From positions 124,001 to 188,000 of the forward strand of contig NIVC01001681.1 of assembly GCA_002269645.1 (NCBI GenBank): a DNA stretch of 64,000 bases, in the 5' to 3' direction. The translations under genes and the position numbers were made by a program. Below are positions 1 through 53,689 of the stretch, piece by piece. This DNA comes from Macrostomum lignano (taxonomy: Eukaryota). The notes beneath the pieces were generated by a model that had not been told where the DNA came from, did not search any database, and was given only the letters and a program-made list of their open reading frames with translations. Position 1 is the first letter of the stretch. Every line of letters begins with the position of its first letter.

Positions 1-1521
1 TCTCGGGCTAAAAAAAGTGTCACCTCCTATGGAATACCTGCGATCAGCCCGGACCTGAATTCTGCGGTAACCCCTGGTGCCTTCATGGCTGGGATTCGAT
101 CCCAACGTGTCTGCTGACTCTCCCCACTGTATTGCAGACCCGGTAGTAACTGCTTTGGTTGCATTTGGGCTGGTGCAGTGGCTGGAAATAGTAGATCCCA
201 TAGTATCCTATTGATAGTGGAGTTCAGTGAGTATTGGAATGGTGTACTGGAAGTCTGGTGGCCCCCAGTGATCTCGTAATGTTTCCTGCTGCATTCTCCT
301 CCTTTAGTAATTCCTCCCCCCTGCTGTCAGTCTGATAGGGGAGGTGGGTGTGCCAATCAGCCCGACCCGGTAGAACGGCGCTCCTGCCCGACTTGTCAGC
401 CTGGCCCAGGAAGGCGCTATTGCGCAACTCTTTTCCCCTCTGGCCACTGCAGCCCACTAAGCGCTTAGACGCAGGGTTGCATGCAGTCCCCTAATGTAAA
501 GCCCCGGTACATAGAGTGCCACCCCAGTGCCCCGCAAGGTCAATAAGACGGGTTGACGTCTCTGGCAACTTGGAATAACCTAGATGGAGGTACCGCTGTC
601 TCCTGGTAGAACCGGGCGTTCAAGTACAGTAAAGTGGAGAGGCTGACAACTGTAGGACTTTCTCCGCCATCAGATAAAGGTCCCAAGTATGCTATTTCGA
701 GCTGCAGCAAAGGTGGAGTATCGGAGGGGCAAGCATTTCAGGAAGATACTCACTTAGGTCTGTTTATCCTAGGAAAGCGGGCGAGAGTTTCAGGCTTGTA
801 ATCCGCCTAACCTGAAAACTTCGGGGACAGTTTAGTCTGGACTCCCGCTGCGCGCCTTCGCTCTGAACAGAAGGGGGAGGTCTTGGTTTTTGTGGATTCT
901 GCTAGACGTAGGGGAGCTGGATTCCCGCCTTTTGTGAAGCTGCGTGTACAAGATTGGTAGTCCTGAGGTGGAAGCCCCACTGGACTCCGACGGTTTTCCG
1001 GCTGTGCAAGGGCAGTAAAGTGGGAGGACCTCCATGGGGATTGCTCCCGCCACTTGGGTTTTTGGGTCCAGGCGCCAACGCTTCTTCGTAGTAGCTTTCT
1101 TAAGGAAATGGGGTCCGGCGCGCAACCCTAGGGGAGAATTTGTACAGGTGCCGTAAGTCCGTTTACGGTCGGCATTTGGGTTCCCTAGCATGGCCGCAAA
1201 ATGAAGGTCAAGTCTCTCTGAATAGCCAATTTTTCCCTGTCAGGATGTGCCATAGACAACTGGTAGTGGTAGCCGCAGTTTGAGTCAGTGTGCTTTGCCG
1301 AGTGAAGCCGTTAGGACTGCCTAAATGGAATTATGTGGAGCCACCCGTTTTTCAATTTGTTTTCTTCGACGCCGCAAGTGTGTGGTTTTGTCTGTGTTTG
1401 TGTGTGTGTGAGTGTGTTTGTGTGTTTCGGATCAACTTTTCGGTCTTTACCTGTAGTTGCCCCGGTTTTCTTTTCTTTTCCTTCCCGGTGGTGGGTACTC
1501 CCCCAGCTATCCGGCATTCAC

Positions 1522-2967
1522 ATGTCACGGGCGCGTGGAGATAGGGTCGTAGAAGCTGTGTGCGCAGACGCCCCTGGTCAACCACCCTCGGCCGCTGACA
1601 CCCCAGCAGTTGCCGCCCCCGCAGCCGCAATGGCCGCAGCCGCTGGTAACCAGGTCCCTCAGCCTCCAGAAGCAGTAGTAGTTGAGGAACCAGATGAAGG
1701 AGTAGCAGCTCCCGCTCCCAATCAGGGTGGCGCAGCAGCCGCCGCTGCTCCCCCGGACGCAGCCCAGAATCCTCCTCAGGCAGTCCCGCAGCTAGGAGAC
1801 TTAGTTGCCGCTATAGCCAATGCGTTTAACCAGCTAAACATGGGCCAAGACGCCCAGAGGCCGAAAATCTACGTAGAAAAGTTCTCTCCCGGCGAACACT
1901 GTTTTGTGCAATGGGTAGAGAGAATGATCTACAAGCTGGACGCGGAGAGAACTGTAGGAGATCAGGCTAGGAAGCAGGTGCTCATCTCGCACCTCCCAGG
2001 TGAATTTCAGAACTTAGCCTTAGGATTGGACGGGCAATTGCCCTTTGAGCAGTTCGTATCTAGATTAGGAGAGCAGTTGGGCGAGGCCAACACTGATCTG
2101 GCTAAGAGAAATAAGCTGAAGAATCTGAGCCAGAAACCCGGCCAATCACATAGTGCTTTTGCTGCTATGATAAGATCTCAGATAACGGCCATGTTTCCTC
2201 AGATTCAGGGTGAGCAGAGAGAACAAGAAATCGTGTACACCTACTTGGAACACGCTAAGCTCCCCCGCCAGGTCAGACAAGATCTGTTGAGCCGTCGCTG
2301 GCAGACAATTGAGCAGGTGTTAGAACAGCAGCAAGCCCTGTTAGAAGCCGCAGACTTAGCCGGGAAATGGGACAGTAGTGGCCCGCCCAGGTCTGAGTCC
2401 CGCACCGAAGTCCGTCTGCAACCTCAGCAGCCACCCAGGCCCCCTCGCAAGTGGGTCAGGATGGTGAACCAGGAAGCTGACGAGACGGAGGAGGACGGTG
2501 ACGGCCTATCAGAGATGCAAGAGAGGTTGGGCGCGCTAGAGCAAACGCAAAAGGATCTGCGCAACCAGCTGGTGCAGCTCAATGAAACTATGAAGGCGAC
2601 AGCAGAGTCTGTTGCCCAGCTGCCCCAGCAGATGAGGCCCCCTCGCCCCGCCACTCCCAACAGGAACTGGAGGCAGGGGCAGGGCGGCTCTAATAGCAGT
2701 AGGAACTGGCGCCAACCCCAGCCCCCGCCGCTTGCAATTCAGGAGGCGCCCACGCCGCCGGCGCCGGGTGTGCAGCAGCAGCAATTGCAGCTTCGTGCGC
2801 CACCTGATCGCCATAGGCAAGATTTAGAGGAGTGGGGCAGAGATATGTTAGACGAGGCTACCAGGGAGAGGCAGGAGAGGCTCGCCCAGCTGCGCGCGCA
2901 AGCTCTGATGCCTCCTCCTTCCACGCCTGAAGAGCCCCCGGGTTCGGGAAACCCGTGGGAGGGCTGA
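1522..2967 (+). CDS. Retrotransposon Gag (capsid-like), 481 aa
   Basis: Uninterrupted ORF from ATG 1522. Segments KIYVEKFSPGEHCFVQW and KLKNLSQKPGQSHSAFAAMIRSQITAMFP resemble the Ty3/gypsy capsid pattern L..L.Q..GES...F...I..L...AFP. No CCHC knuckle. Confidence 0.8.
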   Translation: MSRARGDRVVEAVCADAPGQPPSAADTPAVAAPAAAMAAAAGNQVPQPPEAVVVEEPDEGVAAPAPNQGGAAAAAAPPDAAQNPPQAVPQLGDLVAAIANAFNQLNMGQDAQRPKIYVEKFSPGEHCFVQWVERMIYKLDAERTVGDQARKQVLISHLPGEFQNLALGLDGQLPFEQFVSRLGEQLGEANTDLAKRNKLKNLSQKPGQSHSAFAAMIRSQITAMFPQIQGEQREQEIVYTYLEHAKLPRQVRQDLLSRRWQTIEQVLEQQQALLEAADLAGKWDSSGPPRSESRTEVRLQPQQPPRPPRKWVRMVNQEADETEEDGDGLSEMQERLGALEQTQKDLRNQLVQLNETMKATAESVAQLPQQMRPPRPATPNRNWRQGQGGSNSSRNWRQPQPPPLAIQEAPTPPAPGVQQQQLQLRAPPDRHRQDLEEWGRDMLDEATRERQERLAQLRAQALMPPPSTPEEPPGSGNPWEG

Positions 2968-3008
2968 ATGGCCCGGCCCGAACTCAGCCCCGTTCCCTCT
3001 CTAGGGCC
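2946..3008 (+). promoter_or_regulatory. -1 programmed ribosomal frameshift signal: slippery heptamer plus predicted H-type pseudoknot
   Basis: G GGA AAC (2946-2952) lies in the correct gag phase. After an 8-nt spacer, GGGCTGA (2961-2967) pairs with TCAGCCC (2984-2990), and loop GGCCC can pair with GGGCC (3004-3008). The downstream ORF is in the -1 frame. Confidence 0.85.
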
Positions 3009-3470
3009 CAGCTTAACCTGCCACGTCCGCCCAGCAAGAAGTTTAGATTTGAGAAGGTACCCGATTTCTATCAGCCAAGACCAGCTAGAGGACAACGCGG
3101 GAGAGATATTGTTGTAGAGTTGCCAATTGAGAATGTTCCCACCCGCCTCCTGGTAGATGGGGGCAGTGCGCTGTCTTTGCTAACAGTCAAAGACTTTACT
3201 AAAATTACCGGACAGAGTGTGGAGGCCCTGGAGCCCCCATGTGTGAAGGCCGTGTCCTACACGGGCAATGAATTAGAGATGCTAGGCCAGGCCACCCTCA
3301 CAGCAGTTATTGGGCTAGAAGAGGTGAGAATCCTCTTTCTGGTCGTTGGCAATTCAGCAGCAGTTTCCCTCCTGGGTAGTGCTTTTCTAGCCAGTACGCA
3401 TGCTATCATAGACTATCGAACAGAAAAGGTTTACTTGCTAGGTGTGAGTCTCCCATTCGACCCCCGCTGA
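2952..3470 (+). CDS. Retropepsin-like aspartic protease domain, translated as a Gag-Pro fusion by -1 frameshift
   Basis: RLLVDGGSALSLL (active-site-like), VSYTGNEL (flap-like) and LLGSAFLAS..AIIDY (ILGxDFL-like). TGA at 3468-3470 with another in-frame stop four codons later, so no pol continuation. Confidence 0.8.
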   Translation, partial: PVGGLNGPARTQPRSLSRAQLNLPRPPSKKFRFEKVPDFYQPRPARGQRGRDIVVELPIENVPTRLLVDGGSALSLLTVKDFTKITGQSVEALEPPCVKAVSYTGNELEMLGQATLTAVIGLEEVRILFLVVGNSAAVSLLGSAFLASTHAIIDYRTEKVYLLGVSLPFDPR

Positions 3471-4056
3471 GTAACAGATCGGTAGCTAGCCAGTGATTGC
3501 TTAATTCCCCCCCCCGATTCGCGTGTCGAAATTTTGCTCGTGTTGCCCCGTTGGAGACCGCTTTTCGCGTATTTACGTATGCCCTCTATTACTCGAATTT
3601 ATGTTGTGACCTCGTGCTCGTTGGTGTTGTTTAAATATCTAAGATTTTAGCTCGAAAATTAGGCCCGTACAGTATGCGTTAATTCCCTATCAGTAAATAT
3701 TAACTTGGAAACTAGTAAAATTTCTATGGGTCTGCTCCACAGGAGGTCCTGCCCCGCTGTTCAAGATTTTCTGGGAACAATGGAAGTCTGGGACCGTAGG
3801 AAATTAGCACCTTTAGGTCTGATTTCGTGTGTTTGTTCACACTTTGTGAAAGTCCGATTTTGGGAAACTTTTAATTGGTTTCGATGAGGCAATAGGGGGG
3901 GCATTCAATGTAATTAAGTTTATCAGGCAAATGGGGCAGCAATTAGTTTAGAGTAGGCCAGTGGTTTAGTCAATGTAAAGTCAGGTAAGTAATTAAAGTC
4001 AAGTTATGGGGACAGATAGTTCAGAATTAGTAAGTAAGCATTAAGAACCACCAGCA

Positions 4057-4463
4057 TCAGCAGTTGGGAAGCCGCAGAAATAGCTCCAAGAGCAGTAGCC
4101 AGTGCATTGTGAGACCGGCTATTAGGGCCGTCGACAGCACGACCAAATGCCAGGAGCCGTCGGTCTCCACCACAGGGGTTGGCAAGGGCTGTGGAGCGGC
4201 AGCCACGGGCGTCACCGCGGCGACCGGCGGCGGAGCGTGCGCTCGGGCTGACAACGGCGGTGGTACCGGATGCCAACCGGCCCCGGACGCTGGTTCGCTG
4301 GCGGCCCGGCGGTCGCATGGCCCGGGAGCCGCGGCGCCTATGTCACCAGATGGCGCAGCCGGCCCAGAATCAGAGGGGGCGTCCGGCTCTGAATGGCTGT
4401 CTTCGGGCGCTTCGTAGTCGGACTCCTCTTCAAGGATGGGCTCGGCTACTAGCGGCCGGAATC
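4057..4463 (-). CDS. Candidate antisense terminal exon: acidic/Pro-Ala-rich protein with C-terminal hydrophobic anchor
   Basis: Acceptor tttcatcccttaaattctcattttcAG at 4465-4464, then an open frame FRPLVAEPILEEESDYEAPEDS...WHLVVLSTALIAGLTMHWLLLLELFLRLPNC*. The start exon is unresolved. Confidence 0.45.
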
Positions 4464-4554
4464 CTGAAAATGAGAATTTAAGGGATGAAATAGAAGTAGG
4501 GAACTAGCCGGGTATTAGGATGTAGATAGATGGGGATTTTAACTTTATGGCGTG

Positions 4555-4925
4555 TGGTAGTGGCCTTCCTGGGGGTTTCTTCCTTTCTTCATTCCCTCTC
4601 CTTCCCTTGAGCTCTAGGTGATCAAGTAGTGGTAGCCTTCTTCCCCGCCTTCTTTTAATGATACACCTCTAAGGATGGCAGTTTTTCGTCTTCCTCTCCT
4701 CTGGTAGAAGGGCAAATAGTGGCAGTTTCCCCGGGCAATCCACTCTAATTGGTGACGGGTTCCCTCTTTCTCTTCCCTGTTAATGTACAATTGGTGGCAG
4801 TTTTCCCTAGCAACCTCTCTCAAAATGGTGGCTGATCCTCCTTTTCTTTTCTTTGGTAATGCGCCAAGATGGTGGTAGGTTCCCCTTTCTCTTTTATAAT
4901 AGTACATCAAACTGGTGGCAGTCAA
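4555..4925. repeat. Degenerate array of ~9 units (33-47 bp) with core TRGTGGYWG followed by a pyrimidine tract
   Basis: Cores near 4555, 4626, 4673, 4717, 4750, 4792, 4826, 4870 and 4913; exact TGGTGGCAGT at 4792 and 4913. Confidence 0.7.
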
Positions 4926-5257
4926 ATTAATGATTAATTCCTCTTTCGAATTCTTTCGGCTGTTAAGTTTATGAGGGTCTCGGAGGCATGGATGAGAACT
5001 GCGTGCGCGTGGCGTTGAAGGAAGAAATCGAAGGGAGTTGGGCCGCATCATCATTTATCCTCCGGAGTCTAATCTCCCAAATCCCTCTTCTATTCATATT
5101 AACCAAATTAATTTGTGTGCCTGATCTGAATGTGTGCATGTGAGGTGGGAGTGCGATCTCTGTCGGCTGGAGTACGGATCTGCCGCGGGCGCGACCGGAG
5201 GTGGTCTCGGGTCTGCCCCCTGCTCACAGGTGAGGAAACAGGAAGCGGCGGAACCAG

Positions 5258-5374
5258 CCAATCAGAGCGCACGGAGACTAGAGCGAGCGGTCCCAAGCCA
5301 ACGGCGACCCCGGCCGCAGCAGGTGTGCCTCCCAATGTGCTCAACCAATGGGAAGCCAGCCCCGGCACTATAAG
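5258..5374 (+). promoter_or_regulatory. Internal Pol II promoter (two CCAAT boxes, TATA)
   Basis: CCAAT at 5258 and 5345, TATAAG at 5369, about 100 nt upstream of ATG 5468. Confidence 0.5.
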
Positions 5375-5467
5375 AAGACCCACGCCTGCCAGAGCTGGAA
5401 ATCATCAATCAGAGAAATCATTCTGTCCTTCAATCGCTGAAGCATTCTATGAACTATCCAGCTTGAC

Positions 5468-6816
5468 ATGGACACGAAGCCTACCATCAATCGAATTCAG
5501 CTATGCTCCAGCTTACCGTCTGAGCGTCCTGCCAGCCCAGTTAGCCGAAAGCGGCCCCGTGACGCCATCCAAGAGGCGGAGGACGGCCCCGAGCCGCCAG
5601 CGGCGGCCTCCGCCAGGGTCGAAGAAGGTGACGAGACAATCGACCCGGCCAATGCTGGGGGCGACACCGCGGACATTTCGGACCTGGCGGCCGAATTCGG
5701 CGAGGCGGCCCGCCGCCTGCGTGATGTTCTGCCCAACAGCCGCCGAAGTGTGGACATCGCCCTGCAAAGAGAAGAAGTCATTGGGGTCAGGTGGCTGGCG
5801 AACCTTCGGCGACAGCTATGGATCTGGTGCACTGGGTCGGGCCTGAGTCCTATCATGGCCCACTCCAGGCCGAGGACAGGCATGCGACTCTAGAGCGCCA
5901 ACTTCGCGACAACCTGGACCGGCCCTGTCTGCTCATCCTGTCAAAAGCGGCCCTGCTGGGATTGGTTGACAATACGCTGTTAATGTACATCGAGGCAGCG
6001 GCCCAGAGCGCCTACAAATACGCCCTCGGCGACCTAGTCCGGCAGGCCGCCAAGTTCCTCCGCAAGGTTGTGGATGAGGAACCATCACACCTGACAGCCC
6101 GGCCGCCGTCCTGTGCCCCCATCACAGCAATCTTCAGCACCTGCGATCGGCCGGTCTACAAGAAGGTGATCATCAGCTGCGCAGCCTCCTCTCAGATGAC
6201 TAGACAACTGACACCAACCCAGAGAGCCCGGCTATTGATTGGCCTGGCCAGCTTGGCCAGCCGCTGGGGCATGCTTCCTGCGGACCTGCCAGGGCTGCTC
6301 TGGGGCTTCCTGAGCGAGGGCGCCGAATGGGAAGAGGCTCTCGTCATCCACGACGGCATTCTTGCGGCCTCCGCGCCGGCCTCTGCGCCCCTCCTCTATG
6401 CGCCGTTTGCCACAGTGGCCTGGGCCGCCACTCTCTCGCAACGGTTCAATCGCCGCTGTGGGTGGGTGTTGGCGGCCCTGGGCGACGTTGAGCCCGGCTA
6501 CGCGGGCCTGGCCGAGGTGCCCCGTGGCACTTTGCAGCATTTTGCAATCGCGCAGCCGCCCCTGTCTGCACCAACTCTGACACGGCTGCAACAAGTACGG
6601 AATGCGGCCTTCGTCGTCCAATGCCAAGCCCTGGGCATCCCGACTCTGCCGCAGTTGAGGGGCGTGCTGCGCAACGACATCTTGCCTAGCCGATGGCACC
6701 GAGTGGTGCTCACGGCCGCGGCAGCCCAACGTTATGTGGAAGCATGGGCAAGTGCCATGGCTCAGGTGGCGGCATATGGCCCGTACCAGCTAAATCAAGA
6801 GGCCCATTTCGAGTAA
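5468..6816 (+). CDS. Unknown cargo protein in two overlapping frames (5468-5893 and 5791-6816); probably one gene with a frameshift or short intron
   Basis: The N-part is acidic with a basic RKRPR patch. The C-part is ~340 open codons, Ala/Leu-rich and helical-looking. No family recognised. Confidence 0.6.
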
Positions 6817-7158
6817 GGATGCCGACTGCCTGCTGAGCGACGTCCGCCGGCCGGTCCGACCCGCCTTTCCGCCCCCTTGCGTTGTGTGTTTGTCGTGTGT
6901 GTGTGTGTGAAATTATCCTATTAATATTCGGTTCTTCCATAATATTCATTTTTAAACTTTAATAACCAATATACGAGTCATTGTTGTGTCATTATCCTAA
7001 AAATTCCTAAAAATGGCTCTGTGTTGGCTGCTCACTACTTTTACCGTAAGAAAGGCCATATATTATTACTGCAATTGGCTCAGTTTAAAACGAAAGGCAT
7101 GGCGAGTGGGTAGATTTCGTTTAACGTACAGGCGAAAGGAAATCAGGTTGGTGATGGG

Positions 7159-7271
7159 ACTTACCGAGTAGTTGTATAGTTTGGAAAATCGTGCTGAGTG
7201 CCTTGGTTGGAAACTGCGACTCCGTGTAGGTTGCAGGCAGCCGGCTCCCGTTATCAGTGGCGCCTTTTATA
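7159..7271 (-). promoter_or_regulatory. Antisense promoter and non-coding first exon
   Basis: TATAAAA on the minus strand (7271-7265) followed ~100 nt later by a consensus donor CG|GTAAGT (7164-7159); no ATG in between. Confidence 0.45.
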
Positions 7272-7859
7272 CAGTGGCCAGCGCACGGCGCGGCGCCTCC
7301 CAGCCTACAACCGATCGCCCCGAAGCCCTCTGACTGGCTGAAGCGGGGTCCGAGCCTTCAAGGACGCTAGGCCTCCGTGCGGTTGAACTCCCGGCGAAAT
7401 TAGCTTATTAATTTACTGCGCTGCATTAGTATTTTTCCCCTGTGTAATTGTCATTCTCCCCGAGGCTCTGCCCTTGGCTGTGTGCTAGCAACCCTTCCCC
7501 CCTTCTTTTTCCCCACTTCCCTCACCCTTCCCCGTTTCCTCTCTTTCCCAGCTGCGCTTCTATCCAATTATGATAATTTATTGTTGACAATTCGCTATTT
7601 TTCTCCCTACTATTGCGCTGTCTGTGTTTCCCCCCTCCCACTTTAGCCACAGCAACAGTTGAAATTTTTGAAATTCTGTATTGCACTCCAACCTATGTAT
7701 CTCGTTTTGTGAATTTATTGCTATCCCCTCTATTTTATCGCCTTTTTCCATTCCCGCTCGCGGTTTGTTAATTCTGTGATTTCACGTTCGGTTGAGATCC
7801 CGCTCCCGTCTGTGTGGTTCCATGTTGGGCAGTGATGATGACGGAACCAGTTCCGTCAC

Positions 7860-7879
7860 AAAAGGCAGTGGGGGTGTGA
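7860..7879 (+). promoter_or_regulatory. Polypurine tract (plus-strand primer site)
   Basis: AAAAGGCAGTGGGGGTGTGA directly abuts the TG of the LTR. Confidence 0.65.
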
Positions 7880-10094
7880 TGTAACCACGCTCTGGTCGCG
7901 GGATAGGGCATGGGAACTTTTTCGAAAGTGCCTCCTATCCCGTGCACCCTCTGCACAGAGCTGTCGAGACTCGGCCAGGTCTCCGACCGGGCCTGGAGAC
8001 TCCCGCTCTGCTGCACCCCTCCTGCTGCCTTGGTCCCGTCTCTCCTGCCGCCACACCTGCCTTTCCGGAGCCCCTACCCCTTTCTGTACCTCCCCCTCTA
8101 CCCTATCTCTTCTGTTCCCGCCCTATTCTTCCTGTACTTTCTCTACCTCCTCCCTTTTTTTTGTCTCCCTCTGCACTCTTTTCCTGCGCTGTCCCCTCTT
8201 TCCCTGTGTCTACTTACAGTACTTTGTGTGCTCACCGTCTCCCCATCCCCTCTCAAACTCCCAAACGGTGACGCAAGTCGTGTGACCCCTTCTCCCCCTC
8301 GGTGACTCATCGATGACTCATCCCCCTCTCTTGCGCAACCTTTTCTCACGCTATTGTTCTCCTTCCCAAATTTCTCATGTGACACCCACCCCACCTCCGC
8401 TTCTATTGTTCTCGTTTTTGCTTCTTTTGTTCTCTCGACCCCCACCAATTATCACATTTTCTCCGATTTTCTCTTTCTTTTGTTCTCGTTTTCGCACCTA
8501 ATTATCACCTTTTCTCCAATGTTTACTTTTCCATTGTTCTCAGTTTTCCCCAATTATCCCCGATTTCCAATTCCTTTGTTCTCGACCCCAGCCCTATTGT
8601 TCTCAATGTTTGCTTGCGCAACACTTTCGCGACCACCCGCTGCGCCAATTATCCCCCCACCCCACCTCCGGATTGCGCAATTTCCCGATTTCTCATGTTG
8701 CTATGCCGGTCTCATGCTTCTCATCATGACTCATTCTGACGTCATTCTGCCGGCAGCCAATCAGAGAGAGGGAGCCATGGTAACGACCTTGAGGAGGCGG
8801 CTGTGAGGTCTATAAAAGGAAGCGATTTCGGCATGAGAATACTCAACTGAGGTTATCTCTGTTCCTCTCCTCGTCCTTCTTTGGACTTGCTGTCAGATTG
8901 AGCTCTGACCCATTCGTCTATAAGACGAATCCCTGCCGGTCCGCGGTCTGTTACCGCCAAGTTATCCTTAGCTCCCCAAGTGAGCTCGCCTATCGGCCAG
9001 CGGTCTGATACCGCCCAGCATCATCAGCATCGCCTGATCTACATCAGCGCCTCGTCGCTCCAGCGCATCGCCGCTTCACCGTCTGCCTGACTGCAGCCTA
9101 CAGCCGCCCTCGGTCACTCCGTCTCTCTCTCTCTCTCTGTGCAGCTGCCGGTAAGTTCCTGCTACTAATTTGTGCTCTAATTGCCTTTGCTTATCCGGGG
9201 TTTGCCTATTTTCCATTGTCTGATTAGAGAGCTGAGCCAATTGTGATACCGTATCTTTTGCTGTATTTTACTCAATAGTGAAGCCGCCTAATTGCCTGCT
9301 TATTTGCCTAAGGGCCTAATTATTAACTATTAACTAACTTCATCATTATTCAATCTTTCACCATCATTTCACTCATGGCTTACTAAGCCTTTCTCCCGGG
9401 GTGGCAAAGCATAAGGAAGTTTGGGTAAGCTAATGGCCTCTCCCCGTGCAAAGCCCGCCTGTGAGGGCGTGCTGCGGGGCCGCGTGTGCGTGCAGTAGAG
9501 GGATTAGCGAGTCTTGGCACAGAATGGCAGTAGGAAGGTTGCAACCCCATGCTAACGCGTCCCTTCGCCCTGAGCAATCTAAACTGTAGACAGTACATGT
9601 TCGCCTCATACTACTCTTAGTAATCAAAGTCGCAAGTCAGCCTCGCTCACAGCCACAAAGGATCCCCTGCTGAGAAATCCTCCAGGATTGAGCCCAGAGT
9701 TCCCGATCATGCCCCAAGCAGAGTCCCTGTACTCGGCTGCATGCGTCTCCCCTGTTAGCCTAAATCCCCTGGTAACCAATCCAGGCGGGGCTCTAGCCTC
9801 GAGAGGTCTGGTAGAAAGATCCAGGTGCGCCAGGTCACATAGAGTGGTGGCAGCCACTCGGTCATACTACGACCGAGTGACCAACTATTGCACCTTGGCT
9901 ACAGGTGGGGTCCATGTGGGTCCTTGGCCCTCTGGTCACGAAGCGCTACCAAAGCTACTAATCATGTGGGCGGGACAGTCTGGTGCTGGAGGTCCGTCAG
10001 GTCATTGCCCGGTCATAGGCAGCCTACGGTCATTGCCCCCTCTAGTCATGCGTTCGTCTCTCTACGGAGCGGACAGGCGACAAGGGCGGTTACA
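7880..10094 (+). repeat. 3' LTR, 2215 bp
   Basis: Perfect 7-bp terminal inverted repeat TGTAACC/GGTTACA, an upstream PPT, an internal promoter, and an abrupt switch to unrelated minisatellite after 10094. Confidence 0.75.
8727..8817 (+). promoter_or_regulatory. LTR U3 promoter
   Basis: TGACTCA (AP-1-like) and TGACGTCA (CRE) at ~8727-8744, CCAAT 8757, TATAAAA 8811; two more TGACTCA at ~8303-8320. Confidence 0.65.
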
Positions 10095-11224
10095 TCACAC
10101 ACACAAATCTTTCCAAATCCTCAAAACTTACACACACAAATCTTTCCAAGTCCTCAAAACTTACACACACAAATCTTTCCAAATCCTCAAAACTTACTCA
10201 CTAAAAATCTTCCCAAATCCTCAAAATTTACACACACAAATCTTCCCAAATCCTCAAAATTTACACACACAAATCTTTCCAAATCCTCAAAATTTACACA
10301 CACAAATCTTCCCAAATCCTCAAAATTTACACACACAAATCTTCCCAAATCCTCAAAATTTACACACACAAATCTTCCCAAATCCTCAAAATTTACACAC
10401 AAATCTTCCCAAATCCTGAAAACTTACACACACACAAATCTTCCCAAATCCTCAAAACTTACACACACACAAATCTTCCCAAATCCTCAAAATTTACACA
10501 CACAAATCTTTCCAAATCCTCAAAACTTACACACACAAATCTTTCCAAGTCCTCAAAACTTACACACACAAATCTTTCCAAATCCTCAAAACTTACTCAC
10601 TAAAAATCTTCCCAAATCCTCAAAATTTACACACACAAATCTTCCCAAATCCTCAAAATTTACACACACAAATCTTCCCAAATCCTCAAAATTTACACAC
10701 AAAAATCTTCCCAAATCCTGAAAACTTACACACACACAAATCTTCCCAAATCCTCAAAATTTACACACAAATCTTCCCAAATCCTCAAAATTTACACATA
10801 CAAATCTTCCCAAATCCTCAAAATTTACACATACAAATCTTCCCAAATCCTCAAAATTTACACACACAAATCTTCCCAAATCCTCAAAACTAACACACAC
10901 AAATCTTTCCAAATCCTCAAAACTAACACACACAAATCTTCCCAAATCCTCAAAATTTACACACACAAATCTTCCCAAATCCTCAAAATTTACACACACA
11001 AATCTTCCCAAATCCTCAAAATTTACACACACAAATCTTCCCAAATCCTCAAAATTTACACACACAAATCTTCTCAAATCCTCAAAATTTTCACACACAA
11101 ATCTTCCCAAATCCTCAAACTTGCACACGCAAATCTTCCCAAATCCTCAAACTTGCACACGCAAATCTTCCCAAATCCTCAAAACTTACACACACAAATC
11201 TTCCCAAATCCTCAAACTTGCACT
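10095..11224. repeat. 33-bp minisatellite (ACACACACAAATCTTCCCAAATCCTCAAAATTT)
   Basis: Direct tandem copies in RB1CC1 intron 3. Confidence 0.95.
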
Positions 11225-11302
11225 AACAAGCGCAAATCCCTAAACTGCAACCCCCAAGCTTATCAATTCAACCAATCAACAGGCAAAATTCCCAGCGCTC
11301 AC

Positions 11303-12524
11303 CTCAGCGAGTGCCACGCGCTGCCTTAGGCATTCAGCGGTAGCTGCCTGCTGTGCCACAGAGACGCGGACTCGATCGCAGATGTCGGAGTGCTTGGCCG
11401 CGAGCGTGCTGGCCACGGGCGCTCTGTCACTGCGAATGCTGTCCACGTTAAATAGGAATATCGGATTGCCCGGGTCCTGCGGGAAGAGTGGTTGCTAGGG
11501 TGAGCACAGGCAGCGAAACCATTGATAGGAAGCGCTAGCCGAGTCCGATATTTGAGTCGCGCATTAAAGCTCAAGCCCTTAGATCACTTCACATTACCGA
11601 AATTGTCACAAATTCGAAAAGAAACTTTCTAAGAAATGACTTCTTCTGCTCTATTTAACACAGAATTAAACCGTCAATCAATCAAATTCTAGGATCTATA
11701 ACTAGGATGAGCAACAGGTCTCATTAGATCCTGTAGGAATATTAGCCAAATACCGAGTGTACTCACCAGACCAACATGGTACTGCTCAACCAGGTTGCTA
11801 CCCTGCATATAGACGCCGCCAGAGGCTAAAAGCACCTGATTAGCTATTGGAACATTCAATGCAGATTGAAGCTCCTCCTGCAGTACTGTGATGCTAAAAT
11901 TTGAAGTCATAATATTATGTTTCTTTATAATAGAGCCCTGCTATAGCTATGGTCTATGGATACAGCTACAAGTGTAGTTATGGGAACACATAACTCCCAG
12001 ATCTAGTTCTATCTAGTGATAGTTGGCCTTTCAATAACTGAGACTTAAAAGACCATTGGGGCCCTTAATTTCATTGGTGGGGGGGTAGTCCCCTGGGCTT
12101 AGGGACTCAAGCAAAACAGATTTTTAATGCCACATTTGGCTAAAGTTAATGCAGTGAATGCAGTCCCAGTCATTCTTCTAATACAATAAATAAATGAGAC
12201 CTGTTAATGAGTGAGAAACTAGGGACATTGGATTTAAAATTGTTAAAAGTTATCTGGGGAAAATTATGGGAAATTAAGTAGGTATACAGATTTGATATGA
12301 ATATGAATAGGCTACCATTACATAAAAATATACATAGCAATAGATAAGGATAAAGGAAAATGTAGGTCACAATGGACCTATAATTCATTAGAGTAAGAAA
12401 AAATACCTAAATGCTATTTTAGATACAAATAAAAAGTCACTCACCTTCTTTTTAAGAAGCCTGCATCTACTGTATGAATGGAACCATTGTCCATCAAGAA
12501 TATATAAATTGCTTCTTGATTCAT
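11303..12524 (-). CDS. RB1CC1: RB1CC1/FIP200 (Atg11/Atg17 family), first three coding exons: 12524-12445, 11893-11767, 11476-11303; the rest lies beyond the window start
   Basis: The spliced frame MNQEAIYIFLMDNGSIHTVD...LQSALNVPIANQVLLASGG...DPGNPIFLFN matches the FIP200 N-terminal ubiquitin-like domain (LYVFL..G, HQVLV..GG, NPIFLFN). Introns are GT-AG with consistent phases 2 and 0. Confidence 0.85.
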
Positions 12525-14823: not shown

Positions 14824-23898
<9,075 letters not shown>

Positions 23899-25670: not shown

Positions 25671-33741
<8,071 letters not shown>

Positions 33742-51540: not shown

Positions 51541-52683
51541 TCAGCCGCACCAACAGGCGGCCCGAAAGCGGCGAGCAAATTCACGTCGGAATTTCTTAGC
51601 CACCAGGCAGTAGAGAAAGAAATTAGCAGAATGATTGGCGTACATCAGCAGCTCTGTACAGGCCAGGCCGAGCTGGTAGCGAGCATAGAACACAGTGTCG
51701 TTGTTCGTCTCGAAGTTGATCACGGACGACAGGGAGCTGAGCACCTTTAGCACAGTGATGGGCAGCGAGGTGAAGATGAAGAAGAACGACACCAGCAAGA
51801 GCATCAGCGTCACCTGGTTGACGCTCCGGCCGAGACCAGACGACTGGTAGCTGAACAGTGGGCGCCGATTAGCGTTGGTGATTGAGTTCAGCGAGCGCTG
51901 CGGCCTCTCGGACGCTGCCAGCACGCAGGTGGAGCCGCCAGCAGTCTGCGTGTCGGCTGCCGCCACCGGCCGGAGCCGCACCGACTCGCTGGCGGCGTTC
52001 AACTGGCCGGAGTAGAGCTTCTTGGAGATGTACAGCTTGCGGATGATGAGGATATTGCACACCACCAGAATGGAGATGGGAATCAGGGAGTAGAGGGAAA
52101 AATCCAGCCAGGCGAGCGGCTGCTTCAACGAGGCGAATCTCGGGCGCAGGTCGCAGATTCGATGGGTCCGGTTCGACCCCGGCCGCCAGTGAAAGTCGTA
52201 GACGTCCAGCACGAAGAACCAGTGGGCGTTGAGCAGCAGGCAGACAATCAGGAGGGCGCCGATGATGCGACGGGTGCGCTCAACCGCCGTGTTGGGCGTC
52301 GGCAGCTGGGACAGCAGGACGAACACCCGTTCGAGAGTTACGGCCGCGATGAGAAACACGCTGAAGTAGGTGGCCATGGTGGACAGGAAGTTGCCGCCGA
52401 TGCACAGCTCCACGCTGATGAGGGAGCAATCGTAGCCAAGCAGGCAGGAGATCCAGGACTTGAACAGGCCAGACAACAGGGTCACCTGGTCCGCTATGCT
52501 CAGCACTAACAGGTAATTGTGCGTGCCATTTCTTTTCACGTGGTTCTTCAGTATCCAGACAGACAGGCAGTTGGCAACGGACCCGACCAGGAGGAGCAGC
52601 GGACTGCCGGCCCAGCAGAGCCACTTGGCTGCCCGGAATTCCCAGTGCCGAGTGTAGAGCAGCAGGTCCTGATCGGATTGCAT
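51541..52683 (-). CDS. Class A (rhodopsin-like) GPCR, peptide-receptor type, ~380 aa, single exon
   Basis: Seven hydrophobic segments; GSVAN (TM1), LSIAD (TM2), TLERV (DRY position), FTSLP (TM6), NHSANFFLY (TM7) and KKFRREF (helix 8). ATG 52683 is the first in-frame ATG; the start is tentative. Confidence 0.92.
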   Translation of the reverse strand: MQSDQDLLLYTRHWEFRAAKWLCWAGSPLLLLVGSVANCLSVWILKNHVKRNGTHNYLLVLSIADQVTLLSGLFKSWISCLLGYDCSLISVELCIGGNFLSTMATYFSVFLIAAVTLERVFVLLSQLPTPNTAVERTRRIIGALLIVCLLLNAHWFFVLDVYDFHWRPGSNRTHRICDLRPRFASLKQPLAWLDFSLYSLIPISILVVCNILIIRKLYISKKLYSGQLNAASESVRLRPVAAADTQTAGGSTCVLAASERPQRSLNSITNANRRPLFSYQSSGLGRSVNQVTLMLLLVSFFFIFTSLPITVLKVLSSLSSVINFETNNDTVFYARYQLGLACTELLMYANHSANFFLYCLVAKKFRREFARRFRAACWCG

Positions 52684-53689
52684 GGCTGGGAGCGGAGGGC
52701 AGGTGGTGCGAACTCTAATACCAGCTACCTGAGACACAAGGTGTCATTTGGCAATTTCATAACGTAAAGATTTTCAGCCCCCCCCCCAGCTCTGTTTACG
52801 TGTAGAGCAAGACTTACATGTACGGAGTGAGAGGTATCAACCGAAGAAATCACTCTATTGAGAAATATCACCCAAGAGATTGCCTTCCCCTGGGAGATAC
52901 CACTAAAGACATGCGTGATACGATGAGCTAGGAGATCGACATTATGCTAAAATAAATTGTTTCTTTGATATTGCAAAGCCGCGATTAGCATACTAATTAA
53001 ACTATTCAGCAGAAGAGCTGATGCAATTAAAACAACTTTACAAGAGAATATTGTACGAATCTATATATACGAGCGTACTCAGTAAGCATTAATAGAAACT
53101 TACTTGAGCCAAGCTTTTTTGACAACAAATGTCAAGCGGTAGAGTGAGGAGGATCCTTGGGATTCTTGGCTGCTTGACCGAGGAATAGTAAGCGATAAGA
53201 ATTTGAGGGGAGGAGTGAGCAGTTTTATCTACTAACTCAACGACTTGCAAAGCTCATCCTGATATTTGAGCAGCCAATGACAGTCAGTCAGTCAGTCAGC
53301 AGTTCATAGATGTCCTAAACTATAAATCTGGACAATAAGCAAAGCTCTGACAGTCATTTTTATTCAAACTTCACGGACTAAAACCGCGATAGTTAATCAG
53401 CATCCAGTTAAACAGCTTTGCAACACAGAAACTTACATTGAGGATCCGTAGCACTTTATTGTCATGGAATTCTTATTTAAAATAATTAATATTATTATTA
53501 TATATATTGCTTTTCTCAGCCAAGTTCAGCCAACAAGTTGTGAATTCCCAGTTGGCAGCAGTACAGTAGATTTGGTAGTAGACTTCCATGCAGTAAAGAT
53601 CAGAATTACCTGCTTGATTTCCCTCTCCGTCTGTGTCTATGGACAAGACCAAATCTACTGTTGCCAAATGGCTCGATCAACTTGATTTG

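Follow-up and report, generated by a model that had tools for sequence, protein, structure and literature searches.

A conserved orphan gene in a putative gag-protease LTR retrotransposon of Macrostomum lignano

We analysed a 64,000-nucleotide (nt) stretch of the Macrostomum lignano genome (GenBank assembly GCA_002269645.1, contig NIVC01001681.1, forward-strand positions 124,001 to 188,000), referred to here as the window. Near its start lies what we read as a non-autonomous gag-protease long terminal repeat (LTR) retrotransposon without reverse transcriptase (RT), RNase H or integrase. Between the protease and the LTR is a gene of about 450 codons, here called the cargo, which is spread over two open reading frames (ORFs) in different frames, ORF A and ORF B, and preceded by a promoter-like region (Table 1). 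An original prediction, made from the DNA letters, had described this gene as an unrecognised one with a promoter of its own, standing in place of pol. The last point holds only by position: the gene occupies the location usual for an ORF3, with 2 kb between the protease stop and its start and ~1 kb between its end and the polypurine tract.

Table 1. Features of the element and its cargo, in window coordinates.
Feature	Position	Strand	Description
gag-like ORF	1522..2967	+	481 amino acids (aa), open frame; named gag from its position before the protease
Retroviral-type aspartic protease ORF	2931..3470	+	179-codon frame, overlaps the gag-like ORF, closed by a stop; protease sequence with a DGG active-site triplet in 3047-3470
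GGGAAAC slippery heptamer	2946..2952	+	lies where the gag-like and protease frames overlap; probable site of -1 frameshifting
Possible antisense exon	4057..4463	-	acidic, proline-rich frame with hydrophobic C-terminus (Kyte-Doolittle 2.0); acceptor 4464-4465, candidate donor 5515-5516
Stretch differing or absent in siblings that share both flanks	4986..7041		from contig joints
Promoter-like region	5258..5374	+	CCAAT at 5258, 5332 and 5345; TATAAG at 5369; predicted from motifs
Upstream ORF	5449..5466	+	5 codons; ATG 5449 in weak context; ends one base before the main ATG
ORF A	5468..5893	+	141 aa; N-terminal part of cargo; low-complexity, acidic, with RKRPR
ORF B	5725..6816	+	363 aa; conserved cargo domain of ~330 aa from ~5770
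Polypurine tract	7860..7876	+	from sequence
LTR	7877..10097	+	~2.2 kb; 10-bp inverted ends TG...CA; CCAAT 8757, TATA 8811, splice donor 9151; read as 3' LTR

By sequence comparison, the cargo is a real, conserved coding gene. An open frame of 363 codons arose in 1 of 300 shuffles. A HMMER search over 1.84 billion proteins returned two relatives, and the cluster of one of them contains P0003, giving three relatives in all (P0001 to P0003). P0003 is an unnamed single ORF of 437 aa that shares 34% identity with ORF B over 342 aa, starting at ORF B residue 16; P0001 and P0002 are 37% and 40% identical to ORF B. Across three lineages at 34-45% identity, 25 columns are invariant, a sign that the protein is under selection. 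P0003 also resembles ORF A over its first 85 residues in being low-complexity and in composition (P/S/A/E/D/G 0.61 v 0.60), and both N-termini carry a basic patch (KTRR in P0003, RKRPR in ORF A).

The original prediction could assign no family, and blank family searches bear this out. Pfam gave no family for ORF A or ORF B (E up to 1) or for P0001 to P0003 (E up to 10), in searches whose HMMER filters drop most weak matches, and the cargo had no match in PHROGs, NCBIfam, PDB or Atlas. The two findings that had been named as telling against the prediction, a known transposable element domain and neutral decay, did not turn up: no Pfam HMM for a tyrosine recombinase, RNase H, GDSL, DEDDy or Dam matched the cargo, and a single-ORF relative of 437 aa at 34% identity speaks against decay. 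We found no paper on this element or protein, in a literature search whose scope excluded most subscription journals, bioRxiv supplements, Repbase and Dfam; the protein family is apparently new, and an earlier annotation is possible.

The split of the cargo probably stems from a fault in this assembly or from a private indel. Among the 24 public runs listed, 20 (from seven studies and one organism) contain no less than 93% of the words sampled, and contigs from four runs in four studies (X1, X4, X15 and X20) were placed on the window. Comparison of copies across the break, as had been proposed, showed the contig over the cargo to be one base longer than the window in all four runs, with one gap each (X1, 1,628 letters on 5516-7142; X15, 1,715 on 5429-7142; X20, 862 on 5685-6545; X4, 2,226 on 4918-7142); one of the four may itself be the source of the assembly, and they are not necessarily all independent. 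When one unknown base was tried at each of 859 places, 171 placements gave a single 449-codon ORF, 652 left ORF A at 141 codons, and 36 cut it to 85. We take the single-ORF placement as the simple case because any other would call for two breaks. In nature the gene probably makes a single protein of ~450 aa.

Upstream of the cargo, the predicted CCAAT boxes and TATA are present, the former numbering three rather than two, with two of them in strong context. Two CCAAT boxes within 120 nt 5' of a TATA occurred in 1 of 2,000 dinucleotide shuffles of 5101-5470, and in none of 2,000 when strict box context was required, in a test devised after the motifs had been seen. The claim of a separate promoter has support from motifs only. 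The expected ATG lies at 5468, with G at -3 and +4. The motif resembling a nuclear localization signal, RKRPR, is found at residues 27-31 (5546-5560), and the N-terminus is acidic as described, with 15 D/E against 5 K/R in residues 31-85. In the noncoding stretch upstream of the promoter-like region, three short GGTGGCAGT-like repeats lie within 4713-4922, spaced by 75 and 121 nt.

The element itself sits within a GC-rich block at the window start. Its gag-like ORF gave no significant match, to a capsid domain or otherwise, in Pfam, PDB or the homolog search. The protease frame matched ASPRV1 (E 2.2e-7), which places a retropepsin after the gag-like ORF; the Pfam family gag-asp_proteas reached E 0.021, short of the cut-off. 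The active-site triplet of this putative protease is DGG, where retropepsins usually have D-S/T-G. Among the 40 of 296 variant rows listed, four of five protease variants in siblings are synonymous. RNA structure 3' of the slippery heptamer is not unusually stable (z 0.05). From the protease stop (3470) to the LTR, none of the six frames holds a YxDD (RT) or HHCC (integrase) motif, and no frame exceeds 363 codons; RT, RNase H and integrase are therefore taken to be absent, and the RT-RNase H-integrase order of autonomous Ty3/gypsy elements is not seen, which leaves no RT by which to place the superfamily.

Inverted TG...CA ends and an adjoining polypurine tract identify the LTR. Loose contig ends fall before 7876/7877 in X15 and X1, where contigs of other insertions stop, an observation that bears on the left LTR edge only, and read depth climbs sharply from the bin at 7752-8088. 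No second LTR lies within the window; contigs reach ~880 nt upstream of window base 1, and the 5' end of the element is outside the window. The leader before the gag-like ORF is very long (~2.4 kb by contig overhang, from window 1-1521 plus the ~880 nt before it) and contains several short frames and splice donors, with no Rfam match. AATAAA is absent from the element and LTR (window 1-12000, plus strand). A 33-bp minisatellite array of ~34 copies (10097-11216) adjoins the LTR, and the element may have landed within or next to this array.

Sibling elements have both flanks in common (near 4918-4985, and from 7042 on) and differ from, or lack, the stretch between. Contigs join 4985 to 7042 in X1 and 1654 to 7042 in X4, and a loose end lies before 7042 in X20; another sibling, ~90% alike, extends to 5238 and then departs. 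No terminal repeats bracketing 4986-7041 were found, and none of the joints listed (15 of 26) leads into or falls within the cargo ORF. The shared breakpoint near 7042 suggests a recombination boundary and an exchangeable cargo.

Our best explanation, which we hold at about even chances, is that the cargo is a conserved orphan gene, likely one ORF of ~450 codons and likely under its own CCAAT/TATA promoter, whose product would be a nuclear accessory protein aiding expression of the element's family. A subgenomic mRNA would probably start near 5400 and end in the 3' LTR, with translation beginning at ATG 5468 after the weak upstream ORF. Import into the nucleus through the basic patch in the disordered N-terminus would be somewhat likely. 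More tentatively, the folded domain could act in trans on the chromatin or RNA of the family, by transactivation, anti-silencing or RNA export; we propose action in trans from the gene's location, its basic patch and known precedents. Copying of the element would fall to a presumed autonomous partner with the same LTR, in keeping with general LTR biology.

Several points weigh against this explanation. The cargo has neither an assigned fold nor a family, and the case for a regulatory role is built on location, a short basic motif and analogy. Nor was a transcription start observed. The extra base is located only to the contig span, and 688 of its 859 placements keep the ORF broken. ORF A and the P0003 N-terminus gave no significant alignment. 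P0001 to P0003 are known without genomic context and do not establish that elements carry the family, and because the 20 holding runs are all of one organism, with nearly identical placed copies, the ratio of nonsynonymous to synonymous rates (dN/dS) is not computable for the cargo.

The most serious alternative, unlikely as we judge it, is that a host gene of a lineage-restricted family was captured by the element and travels with it as a passenger that contributes nothing to transposition. The relatives are few, unnamed, found only in Logan and without context; the differences among siblings between 4986 and 7041 are those expected of a swapped-in cassette, and no terminal repeats bracket it. 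Capture at the RNA level commonly leaves the promoter behind, yet promoter motifs are present here, and the ORF is intronless and has stayed open against relatives at 34-45% identity.

Nor do we favor, at a distinctly lower probability, a captured and highly diverged Rossmann-type enzyme (class I S-adenosylmethionine (SAM) methyltransferase-like or GT-A-like) acting as a modifier of DNA, RNA or chromatin of the element. The structure check that had been suggested was run and gave no confident fold: AlphaFold models of the cargo were poor (predicted local distance difference test, pLDDT, 42 and 36). Of the long helical-looking domain described in the original prediction, one half appears helical in this weak model and the other alpha/beta. 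The lead comes from a model with a pLDDT of 42, and none of the scores rose above noise. With a filter-free profile, 20 Escherichia coli methyltransferases and 10 GT2 proteins did not stand out from 81 other ORFs or from what the reversed profile gave, a test of low power with a four-row alignment, and hhalign probabilities were 0.14-0.20% against 0.05-0.21% for the reversed control. The glycine-rich SAM loop and the acidic residue of strand 2 were not seen by eye.

A further possibility, poorly favored, is that the cassette matters mainly for an antisense transcript and that the sense ORF is silent or a decaying relic. Two X1 contig ends, at 5516 and 4464, match a candidate minus-strand GT-AG intron of 1,053 nt exactly and in phase with open frames on both sides. 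This fit was found for 1 of 12 end pairs examined (six internal pieces of the eight listed for X1, of 165 placed), and random end pairs fitted loosely in 1,044 of 200,000 trials and with consensus sites in 36 of 580,013. That X1 is an RNA run is a guess; X4, X15 and X20 read through 5516, leaving the putative intron ends in X1 only, and the joint itself is not among the 15 of 26 listed. The possible antisense gene would run over 5517 upward and, as its second exon, 4057-4463, and has no family match. Taken as a whole, these observations do no more than hint that a spliced antisense RNA may overlap the cargo at its 5' end. Against the sense ORF being a relic, protein conservation tracks the sense frame over 342 residues, and the antisense exon bears no likeness to P0003.

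It is very improbable that the break is real and functional, whether as an intron, a programmed -1 frameshift or a boundary between two proteins. The original prediction had noted a 103-nt overlap of the two halves and weak splice sites to join them. The stop-to-stop overlap is in fact 169 nt (5725-5893), and 103 nt is the length of the candidate intron only (5791-5893). There is a GT donor at 5791 with AG acceptors nearby, and a weak 24-nt inverted repeat at 5741-5811; the intron is nevertheless 3n+1 where 3n+2 is needed to join the frames, and would leave them out of frame. In P0003, a single ORF, conservation continues across the presumed intron: within it lie ORF B residues 31-60, of which 11 of 30 are identical. 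The longer contigs in all four runs, together with this relative, make intron and recoding unlikely, and among the explanations first offered for the break they favor assembly error (or a private indel). The split thus requires neither recoding nor an odd intron, which removes a false lead.

Least probable of all is an env-like or membrane protein for cell-to-cell spread: in its favor are the ORF3 position and a single window of ORF B that is hydrophobic (Kyte-Doolittle mean of 1.71 at residue 68), but the N-terminus is not hydrophobic, ORF A, ORF B and P0003 contain no N-glycosylation sequons, the hydropathy peaks of ORF B and P0003 lie at non-homologous places, Pfam gave no env match, and hydropathy and sequon counts yield no signal peptide, transmembrane anchor or sequons as in env-like ORF3s.

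We next compare the preferred explanation, an accessory gene of a pol-less element, with known systems. The antisense extra ORFs of the plant gypsy-type elements Grande (gene23, maize) and Retand (TRP28) lie between the pol region and the 3' LTR, have a proposed nuclear role, and in Retand include non-autonomous carriers (PMC7264820, PMC11963269); gene23 is transcribed from a promoter upstream of it, and the title of a cited reference calls its product a nuclear protein (PMC7264820). The cargo is likewise an extra ORF before the 3' LTR, with promoter motifs upstream and a proposed nuclear role. In its presumed mode of action it would come nearest to gene23, for the promoter of its own, or to CERV of Cer1. 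Unlike those ORFs, it is on the sense strand (as gag is), in an animal, without a Pfam match, and in an element without RT or integrase. TR-GAG and GAG-PROT-only elements of plants keep gag and protease without RT, RNase H or integrase, and TR-GAG elements were first defined as shorter than 4 kb (10.64898/2026.03.01.708851). The same genes are kept and lost here, whereas the element exceeds that size, at >10 kb within the window (internal part >7.8 kb, LTR 2.2 kb), and has a long extra gene.

Among animals, ORF3s of bdelloid rotifer LTR elements (GDSL, DEDDy, transmembrane, env) are family-specific, exchangeable and typically expressed from spliced messages, and the non-autonomous TelKA2n lacks most of pol but keeps its ORF3 (PMC5408684). 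The element resembles these as an animal LTR element with a seemingly exchangeable ORF3, pol-poor as TelKA2n is; it differs in a cargo without a Pfam family and with promoter motifs directly upstream. CERV of Cer1 in Caenorhabditis elegans, a nuclear protein unlike known retroviral proteins and needed by its element, is made from a spliced mRNA, belongs to an autonomous element and contains a Cys loop (PMC10309623). By analogy, CERV may be the closest functional model for the cargo; compared by description, the cargo differs in showing no splice into the ORF, in its pol-less element and in having one invariant cysteine column only. Retrotransposons carrying DNMT genes have reportedly been found. 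Those carrying DAM have a methyltransferase cargo recognisable by HMM (10.64898/2026.05.21.726589). Both would offer a precedent for a methyltransferase cargo were the weak Rossmann-like lead correct. Unlike either, the cargo here is blank in Pfam and negative in the methyltransferase profile test. One pipeline starts from RT (PMC12801592) and would miss this pol-less element. Extra ORFs and gag/protease-only elements are thus already known; the cargo protein family and this combination were not found in the literature searched.

Among the extra ORFs known from animal LTR elements, most are env or enzymes that can be recognised, and annotation pipelines built on RT overlook pol-less elements. 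A conserved orphan protein retained by an element of this kind is a candidate for a new factor in anti-silencing, transactivation or RNA export. It also allows a test of whether carrying helper genes is how non-autonomous elements earn their keep. As a conjecture, and an improbable one as it stands, labour may be divided within the family: the pol-less element would persist by supplying capsid, protease and a new nuclear protein in trans, the last from an exchangeable cassette read both ways (sense from its own promoter, antisense spliced), a layout familiar from complex retroviruses.

Elsewhere in the window, host genes lie among many minisatellite arrays; we take them to be a p97/VCP-like AAA ATPase split by introns (20699-23260), the end of a forkhead-like domain (28700-29111) and a G protein-coupled receptor-like ORF (51541-52743).
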